This document shows positions 33,330 to 58,805 of a stretch of 64,000 bases of DNA, piece by piece (position 1 is the stretch's first letter; each line of letters opens with the position of its first letter). The notes under the pieces are model-generated. The model worked only from the letters and a program-made list of their open reading frames with translations. It was not told the origin of the DNA and made no database searches. Source of the DNA: Candidatus Helarchaeota archaeon (GTDB lineage: Archaea > Asgardarchaeota > Lokiarchaeia > Helarchaeales > RDOG01); contig JAHPZH010000003.1 in the NCBI GenBank assembly GCA_019058315.1, positions 684,451 through 748,450 on the forward strand. The letters are read 5' to 3'. The translations under genes and the position numbers were made by a program.

Positions 33330-34838
33330 TTACTCGCTTTTTTTGTAGATAATTATAAGAACGATTGCAGCTATTATTGCTATTATTATTATAATAGGGA
33401 TTGCCCAAATCAATGTATCAGGTCCGGAAATCATTAATAACACTAATGGTAATAGATCAGTTGATTTACTAGGTCCTGAAAAAGATGCATACATTATTTC
33501 TTGATCATTTCCCCATTCACCGTCTGTTCCATCTTCCCACACAACATGTATTTTTCCATTAGGTTCAATAGCAATTTTAGAATCATAACTGTCACCGTCA
33601 TTCCAACCATAAAAGTCAGATATACAAGTTACATTAGTCCATTTCGTTCCAGTATATTTTACGTACATTATTTCTTCATCAGAACCCCATTCACCGTCAG
33701 TAGCTTCATTCCACGTTACATGTAAGATTCCTTGGTTATCTATTGCTATATCAGGAAAATCACTACTCATATCATTCCACCCAGTACTATCATCTGAGAT
33801 AACCGTTGCATTGGACCAGCCCGTAGCAGTATAGCTTGCATACATTATTTCTGTATCTGTTCCCCATTCAGTATCAGTATAATCATACCAAACAACATGA
33901 ACATTTCCATTATTATCAGTGGCAACTTTAGGTCTGTAGCTAGAACCATCATTCCATCCGTATAAATCGGAAATACAAGTTGCATTGGACCAACCTGAGG
34001 CGGTTCGATTTGCATACATTATTTCTGCGTCTGATCCCCATTCACCATTTGTAAGATCATGCCAAACTACATGTAAATATTCATTATTATCAATAGCAAT
34101 GATTGGGAAACGACTAGCACCATCATTCCACAAAGTATAATCATCTGAAATACAAGTTGCATTGGACCAACCAGTGGTAGTACAATTTGCATAAAATATT
34201 TCTTCATCTGTTTCCCATTCACCATCTGTATAATCATACCAGACTACATGTATTACACCATTATTATCTATAGCAATGTCGGGATTATAACTATCATCGT
34301 TATTCCATCCAGTATTATCATCTGAAATTACAGTTGCATTGGACCAACCTGTAGCAGTTCGATTTGCATACATAATTTCTTGGTCTGTTCCCCATTCACC
34401 AGGTGTATCATCATTCCAGACTACATGCAGATTTCCATTATTATCTAAATCAATTCTAGGGTTCTCACTAGAACCATTATTCCATCCATAAATATCCGAA
34501 ATACAAGTTGCATTAGACCAACCAGTGTTAGTATAATTTGCATAAAATATTTCTTCATCTGTTCCCCATTCACCAACTGTCCAATCATACCATACTACAT
34601 GTATATATCCATTTTTATCAACGACAATATCTGAATAATAGCTATTATCGTTGTTCCATCCAGTACTATCATCAGAAATCACAGTTGCATTGGACCAATT
34701 AGAAGTATTTAATGGAAAATTTTTATTATCGAGTGGAATAGACATCAAATTATTAAAAGAATTATTTGTTAGTACACTGAATATTGATAAAACTAGTATT
34801 TGAGATGTCAAAATATATATTAATATTTTTTTATTAAT
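33330..34838 (-). CDS. Membrane-anchored 7-blade propeller surface protein (likely ATT start at 34838)
   Basis: Seven WSNAT.ISD repeats homologous to those in 23252-27010; C-terminal TM; frame open to ATT 9 nt after GGAG, which completes a signal peptide (INKKILIYIL...). Confidence 0.8.
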   Translation of the reverse strand: MNKKILIYILTSQILVLSIFSVLTNNSFNNLMSIPLDNKNFPLNTSNWSNATVISDDSTGWNNDNSYYSDIVVDKNGYIHVVWYDWTVGEWGTDEEIFYANYTNTGWSNATCISDIYGWNNGSSENPRIDLDNNGNLHVVWNDDTPGEWGTDQEIMYANRTATGWSNATVISDDNTGWNNDDSYNPDIAIDNNGVIHVVWYDYTDGEWETDEEIFYANCTTTGWSNATCISDDYTLWNDGASRFPIIAIDNNEYLHVVWHDLTNGEWGSDAEIMYANRTASGWSNATCISDLYGWNDGSSYRPKVATDNNGNVHVVWYDYTDTEWGTDTEIMYASYTATGWSNATVISDDSTGWNDMSSDFPDIAIDNQGILHVTWNEATDGEWGSDEEIMYVKYTGTKWTNVTCISDFYGWNDGDSYDSKIAIEPNGKIHVVWEDGTDGEWGNDQEIMYASFSGPSKSTDLLPLVLLMISGPDTLIWAIPIIIIIAIIAAIVLIIIYKKSE

Positions 34839-37435: not shown

Positions 37436-37705
37436 ATGTCAGACATCGACCATTTCAAACTCCTTTTTAAACCAAAGAATGTTGCTGTAGTAGGTGCCAC
37501 AGCAAATGAAACAAAAGTTGGGGCAATGGTAGTAAGTAATATCAAAGCATGTGGGTATAAAAATGAAATTTTTTGTGTAAATCCAAGTGAGAAATATAAA
37601 AGTAAAAAAATTTTTGGTTTGAAAGTATATCCGAATTTAAAGAGTATTCCAGAACAGGTTGATCTTGCAACTATTGTTGTTCCTCCAGACCTTGTTGTTC
37701 ATAGT
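37436..37705 (+). pseudogene. Interrupted ADP-forming acyl-CoA synthetase (N-terminal CoA-binding domain only)
   Basis: LFKPKNVAVVGA...VNP...GLKVYPNLKSIPEQVDLATIVVP, then runs into the element-end hairpin at 37706; remainder not in the window. Confidence 0.85.
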
Positions 37706-37900
37706 ATGAACTACCATTCAGCAAGCTGAATGGTATTCGTCCCGAATTTGTCATCATACTCCTTGCGGAGTCGGAGGGACTGGCTGGTCCACGCAGCCCT
37801 TTGCCGAACATCTCAGAGACCTCTTGATGTAAGGCACTGTGTCAAAGTTCGTGAATTGTCGGGAGACTTTGCCCCGCTTTTATCCGTATTAAAGGCACCA
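37706..37900 (-). ncRNA. TnpB omegaRNA/reRNA scaffold and right end (5' boundary approximate)
   Basis: GC-rich tract after/overlapping the tnpB 3' end, ending on - in GAATACCATTCAGC-TT-GCTGAATGGTAGTTCAT, the IS200/IS605-type terminal hairpin + GTAGTTCA signature. Confidence 0.75.
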
Positions 37901-39216
37901 TTAAGCATGGCGGAGGCTGATAAATCCACATTATCCGCTGCCAACAATCTCACCTTCCGAACCATCGGAAAGTTCTTAACTGAAGGCACTTTTTTAAACT
38001 TTGACAGCAAATTTATATATCCTATTATTGTTTTTAACCCATTATTTATCTTATAAGCACCACTATACAAATCGATGAGCCCCTTTAGTGCAATGTTCAA
38101 TGAAGCATTTCTATCCCTATGATCGACATGACCACAATTGCTGCATTTAAACAATCTCTTATGTTTATGGGATTCTTTTTTAGTTTGGCAGAGCACACAG
38201 TTCTGGGAAGTATAGTGGGGACTCACGGCATAATTTGGATACCCGCGTATGAATGCTTTATACGTAATAAAATCTTGCAATTTTTTAAAACCCCAATGAT
38301 GGTACTTCAAATTATTCTTTTTACCCCAGTTTATATTATCCATAATATTTGTAAGATCTTCGAAAATAACCACAGGGTTTTGAAACTTCGAAATCCACTT
38401 AACTGCTACTTTGCTTGCGAGATGAAGGACATGATTTGTGATTTTTTGCTGCTTTCGCCCTATTTTTTTTATCATTGATTTATTGTTAACTTTTTGTAAT
38501 CTTTTTCGTATCTTAAAAAATTTATACCGTTGATAGACAAGGGGTGAAAAATCGATTATAAGTGATCCTAACACAACACCTCTGACATTCACGGCACTTA
38601 AAGCTACATTAGTCGTATTATTATCAATACCGATAAAAGTGTGATCCGTAGAACCATCAAATATCGGTTTTTTTCCTAAGTCCATATTAACAATCAAATA
38701 ATATTTTTTACCAATTTTCTTCAAATTTGCAGCCCCAAATTTTAGGGCTTCTGCAAGTCCCAGCTCGACTAATTTCATATGTCGCTCTGAACCTATAAAT
38801 TCCAAGATCAACCTTTCGTCCTTTCTCACACTAATTCTAACGCGATTTTTCGCTAAAATCTTATATCCTTCTTTATAATTGAGACGGGAAGTCATTAACC
38901 CATTCACAAGACTCGGTGGGCTTGCTCGTGGGTCCGTTTTTCGCTTTGCTAAATACGATTTTATCGATTCGCTAGTCACATCCCGGCAACATTGCCTAGT
39001 ATTTGCCAATATATTCGTTTTTACTTGACATTTCTCAAGAAAAGTTTTAGAATATCGACCGAGCTTGTTCCAATGCTCCAGATATTGGTTGTAGACCGCT
39101 CCAAACTCTCTCATAAGATCGTCCAATTGGTTTTTCACCTTTTTCGAGGTAACCAAAAGCTTGAATTTCAGCGCAATTATTAGGTTATCTTTTTTATTTT
39201 TACTATTCCATGGCAT
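37813..39216 (-). CDS. tnpB: RNA-guided endonuclease TnpB (Cas12f-like), catalytic triad intact
   Basis: RuvC-I FIGIDNN, RuvC-II IFEDL, YTSQNCVLC...CSNC Zn finger, RuvC-III HRDRNASLNI. Confidence 0.93.
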   Translation of the reverse strand: MPWNSKNKKDNLIIALKFKLLVTSKKVKNQLDDLMREFGAVYNQYLEHWNKLGRYSKTFLEKCQVKTNILANTRQCCRDVTSESIKSYLAKRKTDPRASPPSLVNGLMTSRLNYKEGYKILAKNRVRISVRKDERLILEFIGSERHMKLVELGLAEALKFGAANLKKIGKKYYLIVNMDLGKKPIFDGSTDHTFIGIDNNTTNVALSAVNVRGVVLGSLIIDFSPLVYQRYKFFKIRKRLQKVNNKSMIKKIGRKQQKITNHVLHLASKVAVKWISKFQNPVVIFEDLTNIMDNINWGKKNNLKYHHWGFKKLQDFITYKAFIRGYPNYAVSPHYTSQNCVLCQTKKESHKHKRLFKCSNCGHVDHRDRNASLNIALKGLIDLYSGAYKINNGLKTIIGYINLLSKFKKVPSVKNFPMVRKVRLLAADNVDLSASAMLNGAFNTDKSGAKSPDNSRTLTQCLTSRGL

Positions 39217-39497
39217 AACTTATTTATTATTCATTCATATATAAACCCCACTAATAATTTGGTTCAAAACAGACTTTTTCAAAACTTTATGACTATGAAC
39301 TTTAACATTCGCCGCTTTCCCCCGTTTCTCGACCTCATATCTGCTCTTAAATAAGCCTAGAGCCGGATTTGAGTCTAAAATCTTAAATTTATCATAAAGA
39401 AAAATGCATCAATTTTGCACTTTTTCGAAAGTGGTCTAAGAAAAAATTTAAATATTAGTCATCAAGCCCGACTACTACAAAATTTTTTCAAAAATTA

Positions 39498-42400
39498 ATG
39501 AAAATTTTGGAGTTGAAAAAGATGCCCGCAATGTCGTCATACTTTAATAAATTGAAATTACATCTAGAAAGGAATGATATTGAAGAAGATAAATTATATG
39601 AACATCAGAAAAGAGCTCACAAATTACTATTTGAGGGGTTTAATTTCTCAGCATTTGTTCCAACAGGTTTCGGAAAAACGGAAGACGCCCTTGCAGCTAT
39701 TGGACATGCCTTATATTGTAATTTGGTAGCGGTTTATCTTGTTCCCCGGGTGATGCTGCTCCACCAAAAAGCCAGACTATTGAAAACCTTCTTTAAGGGG
39801 GTAGCAAGGGTTATTGTCATCCAGGGGGATTTAAAACCTCATCCCAGGGAGTTGAAGGATCCATGGGGAAAGCTCATAATCGTAGCTACATTTGAAAGCT
39901 TCAGAGCTTTCCTATTTTCAGTCCAGAAAAGGCGATATTTTGATAGAAAAACGAATATCTTCGGTTCGGTAGTTATTGACGAAGTGCACATGCTCGGGGA
40001 TAGGACCCATGGACCTTCTCTTGAGACGATGCTGTATAAGTTGCACAAGGAACATGATTCTCAGTTTTGTTTTTTGAGTGGGAGTTTTGAAAAGAGCTCT
40101 GCTGATTGGTGGTGTAAAAGGTTCAACTGTAAATTAGAATACATGTCTCACGAAAGGGATTTTTATTGCTGGAATATTTACGCCGAGCAGTCTACTTTTA
40201 AATGGAAAGATGACAAGATCAAAGAATTATGCAATGAATTTTTAGAATTTCATATATCCCACGATATTCAGGATTTAGCAGAAATACGCCCCGGAAAGAT
40301 GGTGATTTTTATCAGTACTCGCAAAAGAACGGAAATTTATTGTAATAACGTTAAAAACTCCTTAGAATCGAGCAGACCGAACTATAAGGAACATTTTAAA
40401 TGCAGTTTTATTCATGCGGGCATGACATTGGAAGAAAGAAAACAAATTTTTGATGATTTTAACAGCGATAAAGGTGTTAGATTTCTTTTTTGTACAACAG
40501 TGATTGAAGTAGGTATCGATATAAAAAACATTGAAGTGGTCTTGATCGAAGATGCCCATAAATATTCAGCCATTAAAAGAACTCAAATGATTGGGAGGAT
40601 GAGGTTAAATCATGGAGTTGTCATAAATATGATTCCTCTATTTGCTAAACGCCGTTTTAAAAGATCTATCATATATGAGAAAACATATGCAGCGAAAAAG
40701 ATCTTACCTAGTGTAAATTTTGCACTGTTTAGCTGGTATTATTGGTTTTCTGGGAGAAAAAGAATATTTTGGAGTATAGAGTATCCTTCGGAAGAAAGTG
40801 AGAAAGATAGAACGATATTTCATTATTCTGATACAGAACCCATTAGAGGATATAAATTAGAAAAGATTACTAGCCGAATCGATCTTAGACATCTGCCTGA
40901 CCTAATCCTTGAATCGTTATTTCGAACCCAAAAGAGTTTATCACAAATAGAAGATCATTTAAAGAGCATAATGGGGGAGTATGTATTAGTAGATAGAAAT
41001 AAGAAAACGATCAAAAGGAAAATTCATGAATTCGTAGGTATGAAATATATAAGGTCTACTGGAAGCAAATTTAGTCTTACATATATTGGGGAGGCTATAG
41101 TGGAGGGACACTTACCATATTTTTTTGCTGATAGGATTCTAAGAACATTTGAGGTTTTTCCCGAGCTCCCTACTCGAGAAATAAAACTGTTAATTGGGGA
41201 ACTGGTCGCGATGAAAGAAGCTAGTTCCAAGAAGATGTGGGATGTAGAAATGTTCATTAAAAATTACAGTAAAGATCCGATTATATTTACCGAAAATCTT
41301 GAAAAATATAAAATTTTAAAAGGGGATGCGGAGGTTTATCGCCGTTGTGCTGCTTGGATAGCTAGCGCTATTTACCTACTCTATCGGGGATATCAATTTC
41401 ATAATTTTGTTGAAGAAATTCGAACTAACATCGAATGTATAAATTCTGTGTTGTTTTGGGCTAAATTTCATAGAAGAAACCTGGATTACCACCATGTGGC
41501 ACTAAAAGAGCCAAGGAAATTGTCTAAAAGAATTTGTAATAGAATAAATCGAATTATTAAAACGTTTCAAAAATCTGGGGTGAGGGTGAATCTGCAAAAA
41601 CCACCCATGTGGCCCTATCAGAAATATCATGATTCTAAAGGAGCTGCCGTTTTAAACAACAAGATTATTGAAGTATTAGGAGAATCTGATGATGAGGGAC
41701 TTACTATATTTGAAATGGCTCAAAAAATTAACTCTGACCCCGACTTCAAAAACACCCTTATTACAGAGTCCAGAATTGCAGGACGGTTGAAAAACAGCCT
41801 AGCATCACGGGTTGAGCGCATCAAGGTTTATACCAATACGGGGGCACCCCATTTTAGATATTACTTAAAGGGAAACCTGCCCGAGCAAAGCGAGTTCACA
41901 TGCGCAAATTGTAATAATTTTGAAAAAGACCCGGCTAAGCGAATTTCGACAGCGGGTACAGTTTATACCTGCCAAAAATTAGAGATGGCAGTAAACGCAA
42001 ATAACCCTTCGTGTGCTCATTTTGAGCCCTATGAAAATGAATCTAGGACGTTTGCTACTTTTCCATTCAAATGGAACATTGAAGTATGCCCCAAATGTAA
42101 TGCTAGAAAAACTATTAGAGTGCCTCAACATGGAGAAGCTACCATTTGTAAGCGCTGTAACGTCCTTGTTGAGCGAACGGACAACGGTACTTTTAGAGCG
42201 ACTACAAGGCATAAAGTCTCAGAAAATATTGTCCAAACTGACGATAAGGGGATGAAATATATTGAGACCGACCCGAATAAGAGGGTAGTTTATGTTCCAA
42301 CAGACCATACATTAACAACAGAATACATTCCCGAAGGAAATTATTATATAGTCAAAGTACGCGGACTTGGAATACGTTCTTTTTTAAAACAGGTCGCTGA

Positions 42401-45400
42401 AGTGGTCTTGGGAGGGGGGACAATTGGTGAAGATGCCAAAGAACTCTTAAAAGAGCATGAAATCAAAATAACAAATTATTCGGATGAGCAGGTCCAAGAG
42501 CTTGAAAGCAGAAAAAAACGGGAAAGTAAACTTCGCAGATTGCTTCGAAGCAAGAGAGTTAAGGGAGAATTATTAATAATTGCAAGGGAGCGGACTTATG
42601 CCAAAATAATCTCAGAGATATTATGTGTTAAGAAAATGGAGGAGCTTTTTCCAAAATATAAATCCCTTATTAACAGGACCATCAAAAAACAAATGGACCA
42701 GCTAATTAAAACTTATTTGGACACGACACGGGGGTCAGCTAGGGTAAAAAACAAAAAGGAAAAAGTTCAAAGTGTAATTAAGAAATTACGTATGATAGAA
42801 GGTATTGTTGCAGAGCTCGGGTGGATAGTCCCAAGAAGAATACTTGAGGATAAATGCCCCGAACTCAGCACCTATGGAAGGGGAAAGGGAAGATATGCCC
42901 GGTCTATAGTAAAAAGTAGGGGTAAAGCCCTTGATAAATTAAATGCGGTGATAAATTATCTGTATTACATGCTCCAAATAGAAGGTAGTGAGGCGTTCTA
43001 TGAAGCGGGATTTTCTAAACTATTCCCGGGACCGGGATTATTGCATTACAGGAGAAAAAAACCGAGAAAACGGGGAAGGAAATATAAAGCATTGTACTGG
43101 GCTATGACAAAAAGAAATACGGGAGCAATTTTTGATTTTATAGACCAATATAAACCCATCATAAATTTCTATGTATTCAAATTCATCCTTGATGGGGAAT
43201 TAGATCCTAAAACGGACATTTGGCAAAAATATGATGAACGAAAAAGAAGAATATATTTCCTTTCCCCACAAGGAAGAAATAAAGTAAAAGAGTTATTTGA
43301 GCAGATTTGTTCCTCAAAATTTGTATATAAAAATAAAAAATTCACTTTTAAGACCATAATGAAAAAAGAAGCTGAAAATCTGGCCAAATATTTGGAATCA
43401 AAGCGAAAAATTTCATATACGCCATTTATTTGCTTTGAAAATGAGGATGATGCAATATGGGCAAATAGTAATTTGCGATTCATACATAATATTTTGGGAA
43501 AGGGGAAATATCGAGGTTATATATCTCAGAATTTTGAAACCAAATATAGAAAAAAGAGTAATAGAGTGCGGCGTAGAAGACGGGTTGTTTCCCCCGAACC
43601 CGAACAATTACCTCTCAACGTAGTTATCGTGCATCACACCGATTTTGATGGGTTCAAATCCGCACTTAACCTTGTGTATAAGCACCTGGGCAATAGAATA
43701 CACCTTTTCTATGCAACAAACAATAAAGGGAGAAATTACATTGAATCAGTGCTTGAAAACAAAGTTGCGAGGGTGTTACACAGGAAGCTAAAAAACATAA
43801 TTTATATTGCAGATTTTCCGCTACCCATAGAACGTGAGGACTTCCTTGTGGATTTCTTTAATAGCTTAAAGAAGAGAGGGTTGATTTTTGAGCCCTACTG
43901 GTTTGACCACCACGATACTCCTGGAGTCCAGCAAATGAGGGAAGTGATACGAGAGTTTGGTGGAGAGTTCTTCCACACGAATGATGAGGATGTCGAAACA
44001 TATGACTTAATCATGAACCATATTAAAAGTACTAGGCCTAGAATTAGAGATGTAAAGGCTTACCAGCAACTTGACATTAATTCTGTAGAGGATTTTGATG
44101 AAAACTTGAAAACCATAAACACCTCTGCTAATCTATCTAATTGGCATGAGCAGTATGACTATCATAGGCTTGAATCCCACTATAAAATAAATTTTCTTAA
44201 CTTTTTCAAGCGTATGTGTGTGCATGAAATTAATAATAAGAACTCTAAAGATAAGAAACCTAAAGAAACTAAAGGATTTAAGCGATATCAAGTTAGGATC
44301 GAAGCACTCATTAAAAACCCACAGAAATTGTTATATTATTATGATTTTGGGGAAACTGGGTACGGGTTTAAATACGCATTTTTTATGTTTAAGAGGAGTT
44401 TTCCCATACGAAAAATTAATAAGCTCATTAAAACCTTGGGAAGAAATCCAGGTCAAATAGATATCAAAATTTATTACTGGCAAGACCATACCATATCATT
44501 ACGTGCAAAAAAATCAACACAGCTTAGTTTCCAAGGATTGCTTGGTGAGAAAATGGGACACAAAAAAGCTACTGGACTACGTTCACAGAAGGTCAAATTT
44601 GTCCCTCATAAAATAGATTCCAATTATCATCTTGATTTTGAATACGGGTACTTTACAAGCATAGCGGAATTCATGGCAAGGCTCAAGATTAGTCCCCTTC
44701 AACGAGCATCGGGAACGTTTTCAAAAATAAAAACCCACACATCAGCCTATGAAACGTATCAATATGATTTTATGCCCCCTTTGGCCATGGGAGAGCCTTG
44801 CTTTCCCACATTTTTAAAGAGCTTGGATAAAATATTAAGAGGATTTAATAGCGGGTCTATAAATTTGCTATTTTGTCATAAATATGATCAATATAGGCTG
44901 ATGTATTTTGTCAAATACTTGATGTTAATGGCACAACACGAAAATGGACTGCACTCAAAAAAAGTCGTGTGCATTGATACAACTGCACACACCTTTTATC
45001 GAACGATGCTTACCTTCTTGAATAAATACAAACAGTTTACCCTGGACAATCTTAAAAATATCTTTTTCATTGACGCTTTGAATTTACGAAAGTTAAACAA
45101 AGCGGTCGACGGATTAAAGGGAATGATAGAAACCTATCAACCGAAATTGGTGGTAATAACTTCCCCATTTATCAGTATTAGAAAGAAACACCCAATAAAA
45201 AACCACTTAATACCTTACGAGGTGGAAACAACCTCTATACGGTCAACGGAGGCGGCACGATTGGTCAGGAAAATTAGAAAAATAGCAAGAAATACAGGCA
45301 TGATATTCTTACTCACACACTTCGTAAATTGGTATAAAGTATTTAAGACCAAAAACCCCTACCTCTATAACTCTATAAGTTTTGATACCTCAATCTTCTT

Positions 45401-45941
45401 GAAAAAAGATAAAGACAACATTCTCAAGCTTGATATAATCCATGTATGGCGAAAAGACACAACTTGTAAAATAAAGCTTGATATGAAGCGAAAGAGGTTA
45501 CAATTGAAAGATATATGTCATGTACCTATTTTAAAAGGGATGAAGGTAATTCGCAACAATATTACCTCGAATTACCCCGAGCTGGCTTATTGCATGGAAG
45601 GGTATAATAAATATGGGGTAAAATTCCTTATTTTTAAGTTCAATCGAGGAGTTCGTGGAGTCCATAAGTTAAGAAACAGTCTAGGGATTAACAGAAGTCT
45701 AGATATTATTATAAGGGCGGATAATAAAATAGATTTTTATAACTTTGAACCCGAATTTATTAATTTAGACGCTCTATTACATTTTGGGGGAGTCCCAAAT
45801 GAAGAAACCATGATAATCGGTGGAAAAGAACGTTTTGTACGATGGATCCGGATGTATCCAGCATTATATAAAGAATTCTTCGATTCTTTTGAAGAGTTCT
45901 TTCTGCATTTTCTCAATATAAACCTTACAAACCCAAGATAG
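39498..45941 (+). CDS. Multidomain protein: SF2 Ski2/Hel308-like helicase - wHTH - Zn fingers - Cas1 - DHH/DHHA1 - degenerate RecA/RadB-like domain
   Basis: PTGFGKT, DEVH, TTVIEVGID, QMIGR; Cas1 region ~aa 928-1310 with LRMIEG (E1101), DKLNAVINYLY, GLLH (H1183), FDFIDQYKP (D1213/D1216); HHTDFDG, IADF, WFDHH, GHKKATG; PTFLKSLDKILRG, VVCIDT, PKLVVITS. Confidence 0.85.
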   Translation: MKILELKKMPAMSSYFNKLKLHLERNDIEEDKLYEHQKRAHKLLFEGFNFSAFVPTGFGKTEDALAAIGHALYCNLVAVYLVPRVMLLHQKARLLKTFFKGVARVIVIQGDLKPHPRELKDPWGKLIIVATFESFRAFLFSVQKRRYFDRKTNIFGSVVIDEVHMLGDRTHGPSLETMLYKLHKEHDSQFCFLSGSFEKSSADWWCKRFNCKLEYMSHERDFYCWNIYAEQSTFKWKDDKIKELCNEFLEFHISHDIQDLAEIRPGKMVIFISTRKRTEIYCNNVKNSLESSRPNYKEHFKCSFIHAGMTLEERKQIFDDFNSDKGVRFLFCTTVIEVGIDIKNIEVVLIEDAHKYSAIKRTQMIGRMRLNHGVVINMIPLFAKRRFKRSIIYEKTYAAKKILPSVNFALFSWYYWFSGRKRIFWSIEYPSEESEKDRTIFHYSDTEPIRGYKLEKITSRIDLRHLPDLILESLFRTQKSLSQIEDHLKSIMGEYVLVDRNKKTIKRKIHEFVGMKYIRSTGSKFSLTYIGEAIVEGHLPYFFADRILRTFEVFPELPTREIKLLIGELVAMKEASSKKMWDVEMFIKNYSKDPIIFTENLEKYKILKGDAEVYRRCAAWIASAIYLLYRGYQFHNFVEEIRTNIECINSVLFWAKFHRRNLDYHHVALKEPRKLSKRICNRINRIIKTFQKSGVRVNLQKPPMWPYQKYHDSKGAAVLNNKIIEVLGESDDEGLTIFEMAQKINSDPDFKNTLITESRIAGRLKNSLASRVERIKVYTNTGAPHFRYYLKGNLPEQSEFTCANCNNFEKDPAKRISTAGTVYTCQKLEMAVNANNPSCAHFEPYENESRTFATFPFKWNIEVCPKCNARKTIRVPQHGEATICKRCNVLVERTDNGTFRATTRHKVSENIVQTDDKGMKYIETDPNKRVVYVPTDHTLTTEYIPEGNYYIVKVRGLGIRSFLKQVAEVVLGGGTIGEDAKELLKEHEIKITNYSDEQVQELESRKKRESKLRRLLRSKRVKGELLIIARERTYAKIISEILCVKKMEELFPKYKSLINRTIKKQMDQLIKTYLDTTRGSARVKNKKEKVQSVIKKLRMIEGIVAELGWIVPRRILEDKCPELSTYGRGKGRYARSIVKSRGKALDKLNAVINYLYYMLQIEGSEAFYEAGFSKLFPGPGLLHYRRKKPRKRGRKYKALYWAMTKRNTGAIFDFIDQYKPIINFYVFKFILDGELDPKTDIWQKYDERKRRIYFLSPQGRNKVKELFEQICSSKFVYKNKKFTFKTIMKKEAENLAKYLESKRKISYTPFICFENEDDAIWANSNLRFIHNILGKGKYRGYISQNFETKYRKKSNRVRRRRRVVSPEPEQLPLNVVIVHHTDFDGFKSALNLVYKHLGNRIHLFYATNNKGRNYIESVLENKVARVLHRKLKNIIYIADFPLPIEREDFLVDFFNSLKKRGLIFEPYWFDHHDTPGVQQMREVIREFGGEFFHTNDEDVETYDLIMNHIKSTRPRIRDVKAYQQLDINSVEDFDENLKTINTSANLSNWHEQYDYHRLESHYKINFLNFFKRMCVHEINNKNSKDKKPKETKGFKRYQVRIEALIKNPQKLLYYYDFGETGYGFKYAFFMFKRSFPIRKINKLIKTLGRNPGQIDIKIYYWQDHTISLRAKKSTQLSFQGLLGEKMGHKKATGLRSQKVKFVPHKIDSNYHLDFEYGYFTSIAEFMARLKISPLQRASGTFSKIKTHTSAYETYQYDFMPPLAMGEPCFPTFLKSLDKILRGFNSGSINLLFCHKYDQYRLMYFVKYLMLMAQHENGLHSKKVVCIDTTAHTFYRTMLTFLNKYKQFTLDNLKNIFFIDALNLRKLNKAVDGLKGMIETYQPKLVVITSPFISIRKKHPIKNHLIPYEVETTSIRSTEAARLVRKIRKIARNTGMIFLLTHFVNWYKVFKTKNPYLYNSISFDTSIFLKKDKDNILKLDIIHVWRKDTTCKIKLDMKRKRLQLKDICHVPILKGMKVIRNNITSNYPELAYCMEGYNKYGVKFLIFKFNRGVRGVHKLRNSLGINRSLDIIIRADNKIDFYNFEPEFINLDALLHFGGVPNEETMIIGGKERFVRWIRMYPALYKEFFDSFEEFFLHFLNINLTNPR

Positions 45942-45966: not shown

Positions 45967-46503
45967 TTATTCTATAAAATATTTTTTTATAAGATAAGAG
46001 GAAAATCCCTTATCATCCCTAAAATAATCATATTTATCTTCCTCACTCTCAAATCTTCGATCCTTATAAGTGCTTTCTACAATTGAATTAATAAATTCGA
46101 TAAAAAGATCGATATCTGATTTAAGTTCGTTAACTTCATGCCTTAATTTATCAACTAATTCTTTATTCTTAGGACTTTCAGTTAATTTTTTTGATACTCT
46201 CTTTCTCGATTGAGTCTGTAGCTCCAGTTTTTCCTTTTCTAGTTTTTGAACTTGAGTATTTAATTTTTTTAATTCATTATTAATTCCTATTATTTCTGAA
46301 AGATTTTGCATTGGAACCCACCAGATCCAAGATCCGCGATTTTTTGTCTGTTTTCCTTTAATTTTTCCCTCAATTGCTAATTTATCTAAACGGTTTTTTA
46401 TAATATGTCGTGGTTTTTTTAATAATTTGACAATTTCAGTTGTGGTATATGGTCTATTTGTATTTGAAAAAATTGATAAAATGTCTTGAATAATTTGAAC
46501 CAT
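45967..46503 (-). CDS. wHTH DNA-binding protein with coiled coil
   Basis: PYTTTEIVKLL...RLDKLAIEGKIKGKQ..SWIWW. Confidence 0.7.
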   Translation of the reverse strand: MVQIIQDILSIFSNTNRPYTTTEIVKLLKKPRHIIKNRLDKLAIEGKIKGKQTKNRGSWIWWVPMQNLSEIIGINNELKKLNTQVQKLEKEKLELQTQSRKRVSKKLTESPKNKELVDKLRHEVNELKSDIDLFIEFINSIVESTYKDRRFESEEDKYDYFRDDKGFSSYLIKKYFIE

Positions 46504-46843
46504 TTTTCTCCATCTTAACTTGTTAACTAACTAGTTAATGAACTAGTGTTTTTTTAAATTTTTCTAATTACTTATTTTATCAAAGATCGCTACACCCCTA
46601 ATTGGATTCCTTGTATGTTTATTGTTCTATCTTTGCTCTCGTTAATCAATCAATTTAAAAGCAATTTATAATAAAACAACTAAGAAATAGAGTTTCCTTA
46701 TCCAATCTTGTGGTAAAACTCTTTTTCTGGACTTCTATTTTTACGATTTGAGACCGACATATTCGATTTTTCATCTCTAACGCACAAGGAAAAAGTGAGA
46801 TGGCTTAAGGAGTTTGAAAATTATAAATTTATAAGTTAAAAAG

Positions 46844-47371
46844 TTGATATATTTAGAAATAAGTAGTGTATCAAATCTAAAAATAAGGAGTTTTGTGGGT
46901 GTTAAAAAAATGAGAGGAGCAAAAACGTTAAGCACAATTTGTTTTTTTCTAGCATTTGGATACTTTATTTATAACTTACAAAATCTTGAACTTTATTATC
47001 CATTAATTTTACTCTTTCTCGGATTAGGAGCTTTATTTCTTATACTATCACCAACTGAAGCTATAGAGAAACAAACTGAGAAAATTTCAGTCTATGACCA
47101 AGACTATTTGGAAAGATATGGAGATAATAGTCAAATTGAAAATTATAACCAAAAAGATCATAAATATAGTATCGCAATTAGTAGAGCTTTTAAAAAAGTT
47201 GACGAAGCTCTGAAGATAAATCCAAATTTAACTATTGAAGAACAGCTTAAATTGGCTCAACTTGAAAAAACACAAGTCTCATGTCCAATTTGTAACAATT
47301 TCTTATTTGTATATTATAAATTTTTAGTCTATTGTTCAAATTGTGAGAAATTTATTTCAGAATTAAAATAA
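46844..47371 (+). CDS. Two-TM membrane protein with C-terminal Zn ribbon (probable start at MRGAK)
   Basis: Two hydrophobic helices; CPIC...CSNC. Confidence 0.6.
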   Translation: MIYLEISSVSNLKIRSFVGVKKMRGAKTLSTICFFLAFGYFIYNLQNLELYYPLILLFLGLGALFLILSPTEAIEKQTEKISVYDQDYLERYGDNSQIENYNQKDHKYSIAISRAFKKVDEALKINPNLTIEEQLKLAQLEKTQVSCPICNNFLFVYYKFLVYCSNCEKFISELK

Positions 47372-47412
47372 TTTTCAAATGATATTTTATATTTGATGTA
47401 GGAGGTGAGTTA

Positions 47413-47523
47413 ATGGATGAATATTCAACGGGAAAGAAAGTAGCTGCAGCCATCGGGGCAATTTTACTAATCTTGTTTGGAATTATTATGATATATGTTA
47501 CTATATTTGGGTTTCCGAGGTAA
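47413..47523 (+). CDS. 36-aa single-TM peptide (not in ORF track)
   Basis: GGAGGTGA SD at 47401; MMEYSTGKKVAAAIGAILLILFGIIMIYVTIFGFPR. Confidence 0.6.
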   Translation: MDEYSTGKKVAAAIGAILLILFGIIMIYVTIFGFPR

Positions 47524-47680
47524 AAACTTGGGATCTACTTCCAAAAATGATGATGAATCGGGGGTTATCTCTTATGAATTTCAACATTAGTAAAGGGTTG
47601 GAAAAGGAGGATGAGTTTTTGGAAGGCAAATATTTATCGAGTCTAAAGATAACTGAGTATAATCATAAGGAGTTGTTTAT

Positions 47681-48652
47681 TTGATTAATAATAATGAATT
47701 CATTCCAGATTCAACAGAAAAAAAACAACTGGTAATTGATCTAAATAAGAAATTATATTCAAGAAAATCATTTCCCACAAGAATTTATTACCAATATGGT
47801 GTCATTAGTGGTCAAAAAGCTGTAAGATTATATATTGATGATGAGCTTATTGCCACGAGGAAGTGTAAATCTTATCAAAATGAGGAAGACGCTGCTTTTG
47901 CGGCTCTTCTATTAAGATTTTCTCATTTAGAAGATTGTGGTGTTCAAAGTCTAAATTCTGCCCGATCCCAACGTGAAAAAACTCTTAAAGCAATTGTCCA
48001 AGAGATTTTTAATTCAATTGGTTATAAAGAGATACAAAATCCCCTATACGGATATCGTCCTGACCTAGTTTTTGAAAATGATAATCACACTTTAATACTT
48101 GAATTAAAGGCGTTCTATAAAGATACTATTGTAGCAGAGCCTCAGATAGGTCAAATTGCAAAGTATGGTCTTGCTTCAACAGAATTAGAGGTTAAGAACA
48201 AGATTCGTTTATTATTAATTACCACAGGAAAATTAATACAGATTCCAGATGCAATTTTTTTTCAAAATGACGACCCTGATGTTAAAGAATTTGCTGAAAA
48301 AAGGTATGGTTCCTTAATAAAAGGGATTATAAATCCAACATATTTAGACGAATGGGAACGACTGTGGATGTATAGGAAATTTCTAAATAATTTTTGGAAA
48401 AAAATCACATTTCCTAGATGGAGTGATGAAAACTGGAAACAAATACGATTTAAGATAAAACAAATTCTTAATATGGAGGAATTCAACAAGTTTATACAAA
48501 TGAAAGAAAAAATACTAATAGGATTCATTTCAGAAATTGGATTAAAACAAATTCTAAAGCATTTAAATAAATCAAAAATGATTGATAAATTGCTTAAACT
48601 TGTAAATACTCGATTAGAAAATTTAATTATTAATAAGGATATATTGGCTTAA
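47681..48652 (+). CDS. PD-(D/E)XK nuclease with N-terminal dsRBD-like domain
   Basis: RPDLVF...ILELKA...GQIAKY; N-terminal alpha-beta-beta-beta-alpha pattern ending KSYQNEEDAAFAALL. Confidence 0.7.
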   Translation: MINNNEFIPDSTEKKQLVIDLNKKLYSRKSFPTRIYYQYGVISGQKAVRLYIDDELIATRKCKSYQNEEDAAFAALLLRFSHLEDCGVQSLNSARSQREKTLKAIVQEIFNSIGYKEIQNPLYGYRPDLVFENDNHTLILELKAFYKDTIVAEPQIGQIAKYGLASTELEVKNKIRLLLITTGKLIQIPDAIFFQNDDPDVKEFAEKRYGSLIKGIINPTYLDEWERLWMYRKFLNNFWKKITFPRWSDENWKQIRFKIKQILNMEEFNKFIQMKEKILIGFISEIGLKQILKHLNKSKMIDKLLKLVNTRLENLIINKDILA

Positions 48653-48737
48653 TCATTTAATTTATCTATATGAACATATTATTTAAGTTTAAATATCTAT
48701 TTTATTAAAAATAATTAGAAAAATGTAGGTAAAAAAA

Positions 48738-48809
48738 GAGCCCAACCCTCGTAATCTACTTTTTAACCCCCTCCTCCCTACATTCCCCTTTTTAACGAGG
48801 GTTGGGTTC
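48738..48809. repeat. 15-bp inverted repeat with 42-nt pyrimidine-rich loop
   Basis: GAGCCCAACCCTCGT (48738-48752) / ACGAGGGTTGGGTTC (48795-48809). Confidence 0.9.
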
Positions 48810-48846
48810 ACCAAAATGCATATTTAAGGTCAGAGCATTCAAATTA

Positions 48847-48960
48847 ATTAAAAAGTTAAAAATGTTAAAAAAGTTAAAATGTTTAAGAAATTTAAAAAGT
48901 TTAAAATTTTAAAAATCTTAAAAAATTTAAATAAATTAAGAATTTTAAAAAATTGAAAAA
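48847..48960 (+). repeat. Degenerate ~10-bp tandem repeat (TTAAAAA core), about 11 units
   Basis: ttaaaaag-ttaaaaatg-ttaaaaaag-ttaaaatgt-ttaagaaat-ttaaaaagt-ttaaaattt-... running up to the next start codon. Confidence 0.75.
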
Positions 48961-48962
48961 CA

Positions 48963-49379
48963 TTGAGCCAACACATTCCTATGAAAGAAGCTACACACGA
49001 TAGACTCGTAGCACTGAAAGGAAAACTAAGAGCGAAGAAAACTCATAGGAATTTCGGAAAAAATATGAGCGAGGTCCTACATTTCTTACTTCGTTATTTT
49101 TCTTTTGGCGAATCAGAAAGGAACCAGAATAAAGATCTTGAAGATATGTTTCAACAACTTACCTTACCTGATAGTGAGGATAAAAAGTTGGATAAACATA
49201 TTGCTGTGACCAAGGCGGTCTATGATAAGACCGTAACACTGCAAGGAAATTTACTAGCAAGTGAAACTCATAGAATATTTGGGAAATCCTTCAATAATGT
49301 TATTGAGTTGTTATTAGATTATTTTTATACTGATCAAGAAAGACAGTCTGGGAAGGGTAAGACCTTTCTTGATGAATAA
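48963..49379 (+). CDS. Tandem ribbon-helix-helix (CopG/ParG/antitoxin-like) DNA-binding protein
   Basis: Internal duplication HIPMKEATHDRLVALKG...GKNMSEVLHFLLRYF / HIAVTKAVYDKTVTLQG...GKSFNNVIELLLDYF. Confidence 0.65.
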   Translation: MSQHIPMKEATHDRLVALKGKLRAKKTHRNFGKNMSEVLHFLLRYFSFGESERNQNKDLEDMFQQLTLPDSEDKKLDKHIAVTKAVYDKTVTLQGNLLASETHRIFGKSFNNVIELLLDYFYTDQERQSGKGKTFLDE

Positions 49380-49392
49380 TAATATAAATTTC

Positions 49393-49905
49393 TCAAGATA
49401 TTTTATTATAAATCCAACCAACAAAACCGAACACATTTCTAAACATAAGAAGATGTTCACCCATTTGAATGCGTTCTCCGCCATGAACTATTCTATTCCT
49501 TAAATCGATTAACTGTTCTAAAGTTTCATAAAATGTAGGTTCATAATAATCTCTAGCTTTTAGAATTTTAAGACATTTTCTTAATGATTTTGGATCTTCG
49601 TAAATATTCAAGTCTTTCTCTATATGTAATTTTAACTCTCTCTCAAGAATTCTTGCACATATCATTGCTGTCGCGTTCCAAAATGCCCCTCCAAGACAAC
49701 CTAACGCCTCATCAAGATCCTTGATTAACTCACTATCCATTTGTAAAAATAGGGGATCGGGAAACACATCTTGACATCTTAAGTTTTTTTCTTTCACGGA
49801 TAGAGGAGTTAAGAGTGCTATTGAATCCAACATTTTATTAAAACAAATCTTACAAATACGAACTTTAGATATTACGTTTAAGTCACAAGTTTCGCATTTA
49901 ACCAT
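49393..49905 (-). CDS. HEPN (DUF4145-like) protein with N-terminal Zn finger
   Basis: EALGCL...ATAMICARILE and RNRIVH (R-x4-H); CETC...CKIC. Confidence 0.75.
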   Translation of the reverse strand: MVKCETCDLNVISKVRICKICFNKMLDSIALLTPLSVKEKNLRCQDVFPDPLFLQMDSELIKDLDEALGCLGGAFWNATAMICARILERELKLHIEKDLNIYEDPKSLRKCLKILKARDYYEPTFYETLEQLIDLRNRIVHGGERIQMGEHLLMFRNVFGFVGWIYNKIS

Positions 49906-49967
49906 ATTTTTCAGACTTCTCTATTATTTTTCCATAAAAGATATTGAGTGAACATACGTTCTCTCTT

Positions 49968-50162
49968 CTAATAATGTTTTCTCTCGTATCTTATTAATGC
50001 ACCATTTAATGGAAAGTAAAAAGCATCCTCTGTCTTAAAAATCGTCTTGATATCATTAATTTTCGCTATTTTGGTAAATTCATCTTTATCTTCAACAGTT
50101 AACATCAAACTTCCTGTGTGTTTTTTGGCTTTAATTATAAGAATTTTAGATTTTTTCTCCAA
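49968..50162 (-). CDS. Small hypothetical protein
   Basis: GGAGGTG SD upstream of TTG. Confidence 0.55.
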   Translation of the reverse strand: MEKKSKILIIKAKKHTGSLMLTVEDKDEFTKIAKINDIKTIFKTEDAFYFPLNGALIRYERKHY

Positions 50163-50200
50163 ATTTTAACACCTCCAACTTCAGCAAATCATTCCCATTT

Positions 50201-50437
50201 TTAGGATTTTTTTTCTTTTTCAAGTAGTGCTAATGATAGTGTAGGACTTAATGTACAAATTAAAACTATTACAATTAAAAGATTAGATGGTAAATTGCTA
50301 AAAAATCCGTAATATATCAAAATAACATATAAAATAACATTACTGGCTATCAATTGAATTAAAACATAATATACCATTCGGTTCTGTTTAAACATAACAA
50401 ATCCTCCATTAATAATTTCGTTATTTTTATTTATCAT
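50201..50437 (-). CDS. Small two-TM membrane protein
   Basis: Two hydrophobic helices; GGAGG precedes the internal ATG (MFKQN). Confidence 0.55.
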   Translation of the reverse strand: MINKNNEIINGGFVMFKQNRMVYYVLIQLIASNVILYVILIYYGFFSNLPSNLLIVIVLICTLSPTLSLALLEKEKKS

Positions 50438-50480
50438 AAGGTCTTTTAAATTTTTTAAAAATAATACAAATCATTACCTT

Positions 50481-50642
50481 ATGACATATAAAATTGAATA
50501 TTTTTATTTTGATTACAGTTTGGTCTTAACGTGTGAATGTGGTAGAGTTTCTAAGCAATTCGGTTCGAACCATACCAATACATTCAAGTGTCCGTGCGGG
50601 TTAACCTATAAAGTGTTGCCAGAAGTAGTTAAAATTAAATAA
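50481..50642 (+). CDS. 53-aa CxC..CxC Zn-ribbon microprotein, copy 1 (not in ORF track)
   Basis: MTYKIEYFYFDYSLVLTCECGRVSKQFGSNHTNTFKCPCGLTYKVLPEVVKIK; 5 of 8 changed codons versus copy 2 are synonymous. Confidence 0.7.
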   Translation: MTYKIEYFYFDYSLVLTCECGRVSKQFGSNHTNTFKCPCGLTYKVLPEVVKIK

Positions 50643-56303: not shown

Positions 56304-56915
56304 TTGTTATTAAATCTGACTGAACTAAAAAAACCAATTGATAAAAATCAATATAAAAAAAGCGAAATTGATTTTATAAAATATTTTAAAGTGAATAGAA
56401 TTGAATCAATAATAAATCAATTTACTATACTTTTAGAAAAATCAAGTAAAGAAGAAGAGATTCAAAAATTTTTAGAAAAATATCCTATTCTAATCAATCA
56501 ATATTCCAAAGTCTATCCAAAATTTAAATTAGGTGAAAATTACATAACGGATTTTGTTATTAAAAATATACTTGACCAAGGGATTCATTATACTTTAGTT
56601 GAAATAGAAAAATCAAATATGCGAGTGTTAAATAAGGATCGGACTTTCACCTCAGATTTTAACAAGGCATATAAGCAAGTTTTGGATTGGAAAGTGTGGC
56701 TCCAAAAAAATCAAGTTTATATCCAAGGGAAATTGGAAGGTTTTGAAAGCCCATCATTCATAATTATTGGTGGGCGTTCAGAAGGTATTTCAGAAAAGGG
56801 AAAAGAAAATATTCGAGCATGGAATAGGAGCCAAAATAATATCAAATTTTATACTTATGATGATATTTTAAAAAGAGTAGAAGAATATTTAAATAACATA
56901 AAGCAATATTCGTAA
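56304..56915 (+). CDS. sduA: Shedu (SduA, DUF4263) nuclease domain protein
   Basis: EEEIQKFLEKYP, ITDFVI, LVEIEKS, AYKQVLDW, IIIGGRS, TYDDIL. Confidence 0.8.
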   Translation: MLLNLTELKKPIDKNQYKKSEIDFIKYFKVNRIESIINQFTILLEKSSKEEEIQKFLEKYPILINQYSKVYPKFKLGENYITDFVIKNILDQGIHYTLVEIEKSNMRVLNKDRTFTSDFNKAYKQVLDWKVWLQKNQVYIQGKLEGFESPSFIIIGGRSEGISEKGKENIRAWNRSQNNIKFYTYDDILKRVEEYLNNIKQYS

Positions 56916-57758: not shown

Positions 57759-58805
57759 CTATGGTAGAATCCCACCCCATTTTTGAAAAATTATTTTTTC
57801 TTTTTTTAATCGAGGTAAGTCAAATTCATTTACAGGAATATTCGATTCTCCATGTCTTTGATAATATGTTAATTTATCTGTTTTAACTGCGTATAATTGA
57901 GGCATTCTTGGAATAAAAAAGACCAATACTATTTTGCCATTTTTAAGTTTGATTTCGTTGTAAATAACACCTTTTGTAGGTTCTAGAAATGGTGAAAGGT
58001 GGTTAAAAGAATTAAGAACATGTTGAACTTCACTTGGTGAAATTCCTTTTATTTCTTTAATTTGACTATTTTCTTCAAAAATCCCAATAATTATATGCCC
58101 TCCTTTGGTATTGGCAAATGCAGATATGGTTTTTGCTAACTTTTCTCCCTTTGAAATTGATTTAAATTCAATGAAGACACGTTTATTATGGTCAAGAAAA
58201 GAACCTTCCCGAATTAACTTATTTTTTAATTTAATTATAGTATCCATAGTAACATTTTCAATAGAATCAGGTATTAAATAATTAATTTCATGGAGAGAAT
58301 ATCTACCCAATTCTGTAATTTCCCAGTAAGAATTTCTAATAATTTTTGCTAAATCTTCGAGATAAATTCCTATATCATCATAGAGAAAATCTTTAATTTT
58401 TTCATAATCTTCTTTTTTTGAATTTATTTCCTCAAAAATATCTTTATAATAAACAAAACAATGTGTTGGATTTCTTTCCCAAGCTTTATTTAATATCCTT
58501 AAGACATCATCCCCTACTTTTTTAAAGAATTGAGTTTCTAAGAATTCTTCATGGACTAATATTCCATAAGAACCGATTTGTAATTCGAAAAATTCCTCAT
58601 CAACATCTCCCTGAGCTGCTATCCAAACATAAAATCCTTTAGATTTGCCATCATATAATGCTCTTTTTAATTGAACTATTTCAATATGTTTATAATTTTT
58701 TTGAAGATAATCTAATACCTCAGTAAATTTAGATGGTTTTCCTTCTAATTTCTTATCATATAAAAACTTAATAGTTACTTTTTGTATTGCAGTAATTTCA
58801 AACAA
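57759..58805 (-). CDS. Schlafen/AlbA_2 domain protein with N-terminal wHTH-like repeats
   Basis: IEFKS...LAKTISAFANTKGGHIIIGI...YYQRHGES. Confidence 0.85.
   Translation of the reverse strand: MFEITAIQKVTIKFLYDKKLEGKPSKFTEVLDYLQKNYKHIEIVQLKRALYDGKSKGFYVWIAAQGDVDEEFFELQIGSYGILVHEEFLETQFFKKVGDDVLRILNKAWERNPTHCFVYYKDIFEEINSKKEDYEKIKDFLYDDIGIYLEDLAKIIRNSYWEITELGRYSLHEINYLIPDSIENVTMDTIIKLKNKLIREGSFLDHNKRVFIEFKSISKGEKLAKTISAFANTKGGHIIIGIFEENSQIKEIKGISPSEVQHVLNSFNHLSPFLEPTKGVIYNEIKLKNGKIVLVFFIPRMPQLYAVKTDKLTYYQRHGESNIPVNEFDLPRLKKEKIIFQKWGGILP

Follow-up and report, generated by a model that had tools for sequence, protein, structure and literature searches.

In a stretch of 64,000 nucleotides from a Candidatus Helarchaeota archaeon (contig JAHPZH010000003.1, positions 684,451 to 748,450; this whole stretch is the window below), a single gene at 39498-45941 (+) encodes one chain of 2147 residues. 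In this chain a putative Cas1 integrase is fused with a helicase, a DHH/DHHA1 phosphoesterase and a RadA-like domain. We consider it somewhat probable that this giant protein is the Cas1-family integrase or transposase of an Asgard-type 'aCas1-TnpB' mobile element, fused with its own helper enzymes. Cas1 is the spacer integrase of CRISPR systems and the transposase of casposons, and TnpB is the ancestor of Cas12. Here the chain that holds an intact Cas1 site also contains a helicase, a nuclease-like enzyme of DHH type and a Rad51-like scaffold, and the assembly appears to travel with TnpB. If its Cas1 moves the element, this would be a third use of Cas1, and a transposase that carries its own DNA-processing enzymes.

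Domain architecture of the giant protein

The open reading frame (ORF) is uninterrupted across 2147 codons. The domain order, which is supported by hidden Markov models, by profiles and by fold searches of the PDB with two AlphaFold models, is a superfamily 2 (SF2) helicase of Hel308/Ski2-like type, two Cys4 clusters, Cas1, DHH/DHHA1 and a RadA-like domain that has no P-loop.

The Cas1 domain occupies 42285-43457 (+), aa 930-1320. When the piece aa 900-1340 was scanned, Pfam PF01867 (Cas_Cas1) matched aa 966-1187 (33.5 bits; cut-off 22.3), and NCBIfam TIGR00287 gave 42.9 bits, which is under its equivalog cut-off of 71.7. A family profile built from eight members and compared with solved structures matched the Archaeoglobus Cas1 4n06 (E 1.2e-11) and the Methanosarcina casposase 6opm (E 6e-7), and in these two profile alignments E1101, N1149, H1183, D1213 and D1216 fall on the catalytic residues of Cas1 and casposase. 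None of the five varies among the relatives in which this region is present. The original prediction, which was made from the sequence alone, had placed a Cas1 fold at about aa 928-1310 and had named E1101, H1183 and D1216 as the metal-binding triad; the fold is upheld by the Pfam score and the match to 4n06, and the sites are confirmed, with D1213 to be added. The very basic insert that had been noticed between the catalytic His and Asp is also real: in the family alignment it spans about 30 residues (43047-43130 (+), aa 1184-1211), and it is found in all family members, with varying length.

The SF2 helicase core (39579-40712 (+), aa 28-405) has motifs I, II and VI intact, with PTGFGKT at aa 55, DEVH at aa 161 and QMIGR at aa 363. 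These are the motifs from which a helicase had been proposed, and the proposal is borne out by the Pfam matches (DEAD at aa 35-199, E 1e-18; Helicase_C at aa 262-368, E 3e-18), by the nearest solved structures, which are the Ski2-type Hjm/Hel308 helicase and the helicase domain of Pol theta (DNA polymerase theta), and by the invariance of K60, D161-E162-x-H164, Q363, G366 and R367 wherever the region is present in the family alignment. The archaeal Hel308-type DNA helicase is the top NCBIfam model for this part. An accessory region follows (40713-41867 (+), aa 406-790), in which a winged helix is possible; its Pfam matches are weak, namely HVO_A0261_N at aa 498-538 (E 0.004, sub-threshold) and Helicase_dom4_arc at aa 601-642. 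The two Cys4 clusters (41901-42158 (+), aa 802-839 and 864-887) are formed by eight cysteines (802, 805, 825 and 839; 864, 867, 884 and 887) that are invariant in the family alignment, and the second is a zinc ribbon, with a Zn_Ribbon_TF match (E 2.8e-4) under the Pfam cut-off. Thus of the winged helix and the two clusters that had been predicted together, the clusters stand but the winged helix has only the below-cut-off match just given.

For the DHH/DHHA1 phosphoesterase (43614-44582 (+), aa 1373-1695), motifs I-IV can be recognized. In a Pfam scan of the C-terminal part of the protein the DHH domain was undetected, and Rad51 matched with just E 0.01. An AlphaFold2 model of aa 1360-1745, computed from a 14-sequence alignment, reached a predicted local distance difference test score (pLDDT) of 82.9 and a predicted template modelling score (pTM) of 0.80, and when it was compared with the PDB all of its top 50 matches were DHH/DHHA1 proteins (from E 2e-10, probability 1.0), including NrnA, pAp phosphatase, Rv2837c, GdpP and RecJ. 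H1380, D1382, D1384, D1439 and D1470-H1471-H1472 are invariant, and G1687-H1688 is present in most members. Model, structural matches and motif residues therefore all uphold the DHH/DHHA1 assignment that had been made from motifs.

The model of aa 1765-2147 (pLDDT 73.4) contains a Rad51/RadA-fold domain (44811-45491 (+), aa 1772-1998). Foldseek matched it to RAD51, RAD51 paralogues and RadA (E 1.7e-12 over about 230 columns), and VIA-align gave Z 20.5 (203 residues, root mean square deviation 2.7 A); RadB, DnaB and KaiC score about 3 Z units lower. The P-loop position reads CHKYDQY and the Walker B position VVITS/IIVNS throughout the family members, so that neither the P-loop nor the Walker B aspartate is present; the RecA-like domain with degenerate Walker A and B motifs that had been predicted is thus found both in the fold matches and in the family alignment. 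Since these motifs are of a non-ATP-binding kind in all members, the domain is, judged by model and alignment, a predicted pseudo-ATPase on the Rad51 branch of the RecA-core fold, and hence would not be a working recombinase. The chain ends in a beta-rich C-terminal domain (45525-45938 (+), aa 2010-2147). In the fold search with the model of aa 1765-2147 these last 140 or so residues obtained no separate match, because the RadA-like domain occupies the whole match list.

Conservation and distribution of the family

The family alignment comprises 17 sequences: five paralogues of this genome, three giant ORFs of two related genomes (one of which is also among the profile matches below, as P0005) and nine further metagenomic matches. 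Pairwise identity among the members is 24-37%, and all diagnostic helicase, Cas1, DHH and Cys residues are invariant where the region is present. At such low identity this invariance indicates that the helicase, Cas1 and DHH sites are all under selection; as far as an alignment can tell, all three putative catalytic centres are strongly conserved.

The family is rare. A profile of the C-terminal part (about 800 residues), searched against 1.84 billion representative proteins at E <= 1e-3, matched 32 proteins. About ten of these are giants of 1800-2600 residues with the same layout, and Pfam confirms that the weak matches at the tail of the list are stand-alone DHH phosphoesterases and Rad51/RadA proteins. 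In a sample of the phylum, 12 of 400 genomes match the giant family, and the form longer than 2000 residues was seen solely in the window's own order. The same domain order, which the original prediction had proposed to look for among Asgard genomes, does therefore recur. A word-indexed protein search with the giant returned one match, a paralogue (D) in the same genome. Logan contigs from the likely source sample overlap, tile the giant gene and span the left junction of the unit described below, which is not independent evidence, and those of one low-coverage related sample gave no independent support beyond contiguity. The recurrence of the architecture across many independent assemblies rules out a chimeric mis-assembly, and the claim of a single ORF stands. 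The genome of one contig (L023, DATKTP010000038.1) was placed in the window's order by genome search; the record of this contig is titled 'Candidatus Deferrimicrobium sp.', which we take to be a bacterial name, and the label is probably wrong.

The conserved unit, its copies and its ends

The giant gene is part of a conserved unit of 8,229 bp (37706-45934) that consists of a guide-RNA end, tnpB, a divergent intergenic region and the giant gene. The tnpB gene (37813-39216 (-), 467 aa; Pfam Cas12f1-like_TNB, E 3.5e-18) encodes the RuvC residues D/E/D and a CxxC zinc finger, both read from an alignment with six other giant-linked TnpBs, and it is separated from the giant gene, to which it stands head-to-head, by 281 bp (39217-39497). 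The original prediction was right in its account of the domains, in their order as well as in their intact sites, but its statement of the finding had omitted this tnpB partner, which companion notes on the window did mention. The presumed omegaRNA scaffold, which is also the right end of the tnpB module, lies at 37706-37900 (-), ends in ...GGTAGTTCAT and is conserved in three copies to the last base. It contains a perfect hairpin with a 10-bp stem (37713-37734), 7 nt inside the left end of the unit, and has an RNA fold z of -2.45; no Rfam family matched across 36.5-47 kb of the window.

The extent of the unit is given by its copies in the genome (5.79 Mb in 12 contigs, 94% complete). Copy B lies about 113 kb downstream of the copy in the window (copy A) on the same contig, and its giant protein is 76.5% and its tnpB 80% identical to those of copy A. 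The DNA homology of A and B starts exactly at 37706 (in B, from C11:835920 onward), 107 nt past the tnpB stop codon, and runs at 81% identity. A third copy, C, is internally deleted, so that the 3' end of its giant gene is joined to the interior of tnpB, at the end of contig C2; we infer that the start of contig C8 is the remainder of this copy, across an unassembled gap. The C8 piece has its left end at 37706, as in A and B, and the homology of the C2 piece breaks off at 45934, two codons ahead of the giant stop codon, which the flank must then supply. The left end common to three copies and the right end taken from the deleted copy together give a unit of about 8.2 kb, in which the giant gene is accompanied only by tnpB and the guide-RNA end of tnpB. 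The left flanks of the three copies are mutually unrelated, and within the genome this type of tnpB is confined to the deleted copy and the immediate neighborhood of giants A and B. We conclude that the unit is probably mobile.

Left of copy A are the first 90 codons of a gene for an ADP-forming acyl-CoA synthetase (37436-37705 (+)), cut at the insertion. Its codons reach the junction, and contig C2 carries a full-length paralogue with 50% identity to this piece. TnpB thus has host sequence in its guide position, as is usual for this nuclease. The ends of the unit, ATGAACTACC... and ...ACAAACCC, are not mutually inverted and the flanks share no duplication, the right end being that of one comparison. 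A likeness of 'TGGATTTAAA' in two left flanks was rejected as chance, because those flanks are otherwise unrelated, and a hairpin near the right end folds no better than shuffled sequences.

The guide position bears on one alternative, in which the giant would be an adaptation-like or defence module: it would capture foreign DNA and provide or write the guides that TnpB or RAMP effectors use, in the manner of a CRISPR system without an array. This is very unlikely in our view. It would agree with the role of Cas1 as spacer integrase, with partners that are RNA-guided or derived from CRISPR effectors, and with the genes of Shedu SduA_C, Schlafen AlbA_2 and HEPN type further right in the window; but the DNA after the guide-RNA scaffold is made up of host codons, the three flanks are unrelated with no repeat beyond them, and no cas2 was found in the 94%-complete genome. 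The original prediction had suggested that the giant either mobilises this element or captures DNA. Mobilisation is the better supported of the two, because the gene sits in a sharply bounded, multi-copy unit, while capture finds no support, because the DNA beside the guide-RNA end consists of host codons with neither repeat nor array.

Other enzymes that might move the unit were sought in the genome. Neither a Y1 transposase (PF01797) nor a serine recombinase (PF00239) was found in this 94%-complete genome, and no Cas2 (PF09827). There is no ordinary cas1, as five of the five Cas1 matches in the genome are giant fusions, that is, paralogues. Array-like repeats were absent from 34-50 kb of the window, and the unit has no gene for a family B DNA polymerase (PolB), so that the earlier statement of 'no array, cas2 or PolB' holds, for the array in 34-50 kb, for Cas2 in the genome and for PolB in the unit. 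With no cas2, ordinary cas1, Y1 or serine transposase found in the genome, the Cas1 giant is the best candidate transposase, and its Cas1 domain the sole candidate recombinase in the element as read from its sequence.

The copies also bear on a further possibility, namely that the giant is a host enzyme of DNA repair or replication restart which was merely duplicated along with an adjacent tnpB and has no role in mobility. Paralogue D has no tnpB and the copies are old (76-80% identity), as this would lead one to expect, but we give it little credence. The family is rare and patchy by the counts given above and is multi-copy where present, and the unit has a base-exact shared end. Several contigs, moreover, break at or within giant loci, and the giant ORFs of copy B, of genome G003 and of both copies in genome G006 run off contig ends.

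Relatives and their changing partners

The members of the family are associated with three kinds of partner: TnpB at 7 loci, array-less RAMP modules at 3 loci and a LAGLIDADG gene at 1. The head-to-head tnpB arrangement is seen at 7 loci in 4 genomes or metagenomes, namely in copies A, B and C, at three loci from a pair of related genomes and on one metagenomic contig, and the TnpBs linked to giants belong to two clades. On two contigs of genome G006 (L019 and L020) the giants are 93% identical in DNA and the TnpBs 48% identical, and the exchange point is the start of tnpB. Since the homology begins at the tnpB start codon, tnpB modules appear to have been swapped by recombination.

Two metagenomic contigs, L059 and L061, carry giant relatives (P0009 and P0017) head-to-head with a three-gene RAMP / DUF8574 module, and a genuine RadA gene adjoins both of these loci. 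In the genome studied here, paralogue E is a shorter form, helicase-Cas1 with leucine-rich repeats (LRR), near the genome's only RAMP gene. Another Asgard family has up to four helicase-Cas1 genes of about 1340 residues per genome; a Pfam-confirmed RAMP gene comes after one of them, and ORFs of similar size come after the others. Paralogue D follows a LAGLIDADG gene. A further Asgard family has a split version, in which TnpB, a LAGLIDADG-HTH (helix-turn-helix) protein, a 1359-aa Cas1 protein, an SF2 helicase and a calcineurin-type phosphoesterase are separate genes. At the split loci L055 (G121:C246), L053 and L054, a Cas1 protein of about 1300 residues is accompanied by a separate DEAD helicase and an MZB-calcineurin phosphoesterase.

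This variety of partners is where the main rival of the integrase reading has its strength. In that rival, the giant is a helper in the processing of breaks: a partner nuclease (TnpB, a RAMP complex or LAGLIDADG) cuts, the giant resects with its helicase and DHH parts in the manner of RecQ and RecJ, the RadA-like domain loads host RadA, and the element is copied by homologous recombination, with the role of Cas1 minor or altered. The family adjoins three unrelated kinds of site-specific nuclease module, a genuine RadA gene stands beside two RAMP-linked relatives, and the nuclease domain appears interchangeable, being DHH here and a calcineurin-type phosphoesterase in the split form. The changing partners would be accounted for, as would the missing terminal inverted repeats (TIRs) and target-site duplication (TSD). 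On the other hand, the invariance of the Cas1 residues E/H/D/D in all members speaks for a need for Cas1 activity, be it strand transfer or cleavage, and homing alone leaves copies at three unrelated sites unexplained. We regard this alternative as rather unlikely.

There is also a more radical proposal. The giant would be a new transposition machine downstream of a programmable or site-specific nuclease, in which TnpB, RAMP or LAGLIDADG picks and cuts the site and one polypeptide unwinds, trims, recruits RadA and joins via Cas1. We think this quite unlikely. If true, mobility would here be directed by a nuclease and need no Y1, serine or DDE transposase, and this would be relevant to how Cas1 first came to act alongside RNA-guided effectors. 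In any case, since the family is also paired with array-less RAMP modules, it is a natural place for studying the partnership between integrase and RNA-guided effector.

Proposed function

According to the integrase reading that we favor, the Cas1 domain would perform the strand transfer that inserts the element, and the helicase and the DHH nuclease would prepare or process single-stranded ends. The dead RadA-like domain might bind DNA or recruit host RadA. TnpB, guided by the host sequence beside its end, would cut empty sites, so that the element is copied back; such cutting of empty sites with copy-back has been shown for the TnpB of IS200/IS605 elements. In favor of this reading are the architecture with its invariant sites, the three copies with a common left end, the junction inside host codons, the lack of another recombinase in the genome searches described above and the split version with the same kinds of parts in another Asgard family.

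Several observations weigh against it. A single comparison, with a copy that is itself rearranged, defines the right end at 45934. Divergence among the copies is 6-20%, which does not document a recent jump. The remainder of the synthetase gene was found neither near the element nor elsewhere on the contig, and copy A is therefore no clean simple insertion. Casposase-type integration produces TIRs and a TSD; neither was found at this unit, where only weak AT-rich chance pairs were seen. No empty site was found, and the two genes that flank the third copy are not neighbors in five related genomes. In close relatives RAMP modules take the place of TnpB, and these modules are not known to be mobile. 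One relative has an IS607-type serine transposase nearby. Lastly, the aCas1-TnpB class has to our knowledge been described by computation alone, and we are aware of no report of biochemical activity for any of its members.

Relation to known systems

Asgard homologues of Cas1 were reportedly described by Makarova and colleagues in 2020 in the CRISPR J, according to a paper that cites that work. The class to which we assign the element was brought out by Altae-Tran 2023 (PMC10691335), where Asgard Cas1 variants (aCas1) replace the usual transposases beside TnpB, two TnpB groups ('Cas1H-Asgard-1/-2') are distinguished, and aCas1 is proposed as the transposase of such loci. Repeats flank the loci described there, and downstream of tnpB a stretch of variable sequence is followed by a conserved GTTCACTCA motif. 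According to Koonin and Makarova 2022 (PMC8730458), a distinct Cas1 is part of most Asgard RAMP (ARAMP) systems, and the Cas1 homologues of Asgard archaea may belong to new mobile elements.

A head-to-head tnpB with a diverged Cas1 makes the element of the window a member of the Asgard aCas1-TnpB class. The two agree in a very diverged Cas1 homologue adjoining tnpB, in the lack of TnpA, array and cas2 and, probably, in an Asgard host; they differ in that no flanking repeats were found here and GTTCACTCA is not at this tnpB end, and in that Cas1 is here fused with helicase, DHH/DHHA1 and pseudo-RadA in a chain of 2147 residues. The search for GTTCACTCA gave matches at chance level and no exact match near the end of tnpB, the sole exact match being 4 kb outside the unit. 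The aCas1-TnpB kind is thus already known by computation, and the fused helicase-Cas1-DHH-pseudoRadA chain may be a form of it that has not been depicted before. A literature search on Cas1, DHH, Asgard and RadA, whose scope did not take in the primary 2020 description and the supplements of Altae-Tran 2023, returned no relevant paper. What is gained here is a well-defined example, in which the left end is fixed to the base, a candidate for the right end is proposed, and domain boundaries and putative catalytic residues are given.

The ARAMP systems are approached by P0009, P0017, paralogue E and the forms of about 1340 residues from another family, all of which adjoin RAMP genes, whereas copy A pairs with TnpB. 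The casposons, represented by the Methanosarcina mazei casposase (6opm), share with the unit a Cas1-family enzyme, without Cas2 or array, as the presumed integrase of a mobile element. In contrast to them, the unit lacks PolB, TIRs and a TSD were not found, and the giant is about five times larger than the casposase and has three extra enzyme-like domains. With the IS200/IS605 tnpB elements the unit has in common a guide-RNA scaffold that reaches the element end, a subterminal hairpin, asymmetric ends, no TSD, and the host flank as guide, but neither the element nor the genome yielded a Y1 (TnpA) or serine transposase, and a Cas1 fusion gene of 6.4 kb stands in that place.

The combination of SF2 helicase, DHH/DHHA1 and Rad51 fold (closest to RAD51, RAD51C and XRCC3) recalls RecQ-RecJ resection and the Rad51 paralogues. 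Unlike in those systems, the parts form one polypeptide that includes Cas1, and the Rad51-like part is without an ATP site. The DHH part, moreover, is as close to NrnA and the pAp phosphatases as to RecJ.

Surroundings of the unit

Immediately to the right of the giant gene, a gene at 45967-46503 (-) encodes a winged-helix (weakly TBPIP/Hop2-like) coiled-coil protein of 178 residues. The genome has three copies of it; one that is 55% identical comes after paralogue D and the third opens contig C2, where the start of the contig may join the end of copy B. The gene is absent from the related loci examined in other genomes and metagenomes and was for this reason left out of the unit. The DNA at 46419-50550 recurs in pieces, with 83-97% identity, at the start of C2 and on C1 (20.6-25.2 kb), independently of the unit, and may be another repeated segment or a variable island. 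A larger element of 40 kb, extending past the window, was considered and set aside, since the deleted copy stops at 45934 and this right-hand DNA turns up elsewhere by itself. The defence-type genes to the right are HepT/HEPN-like (49393-49905 (-)), Shedu SduA_C (56304-56915 (+)) and Schlafen AlbA_2 (57759-58805 (-)).

On the other side of the unit, four tandem repeats of 177 nt (34003-34707) lie within an ORF of 493 residues (-) that has a weak BNR-like match and looks like a repeat-containing surface protein. Eukaryote-like genes are also present nearby, among them PCI, LRR, the TBPIP-like winged helix and an Arf/Ras GTPase.

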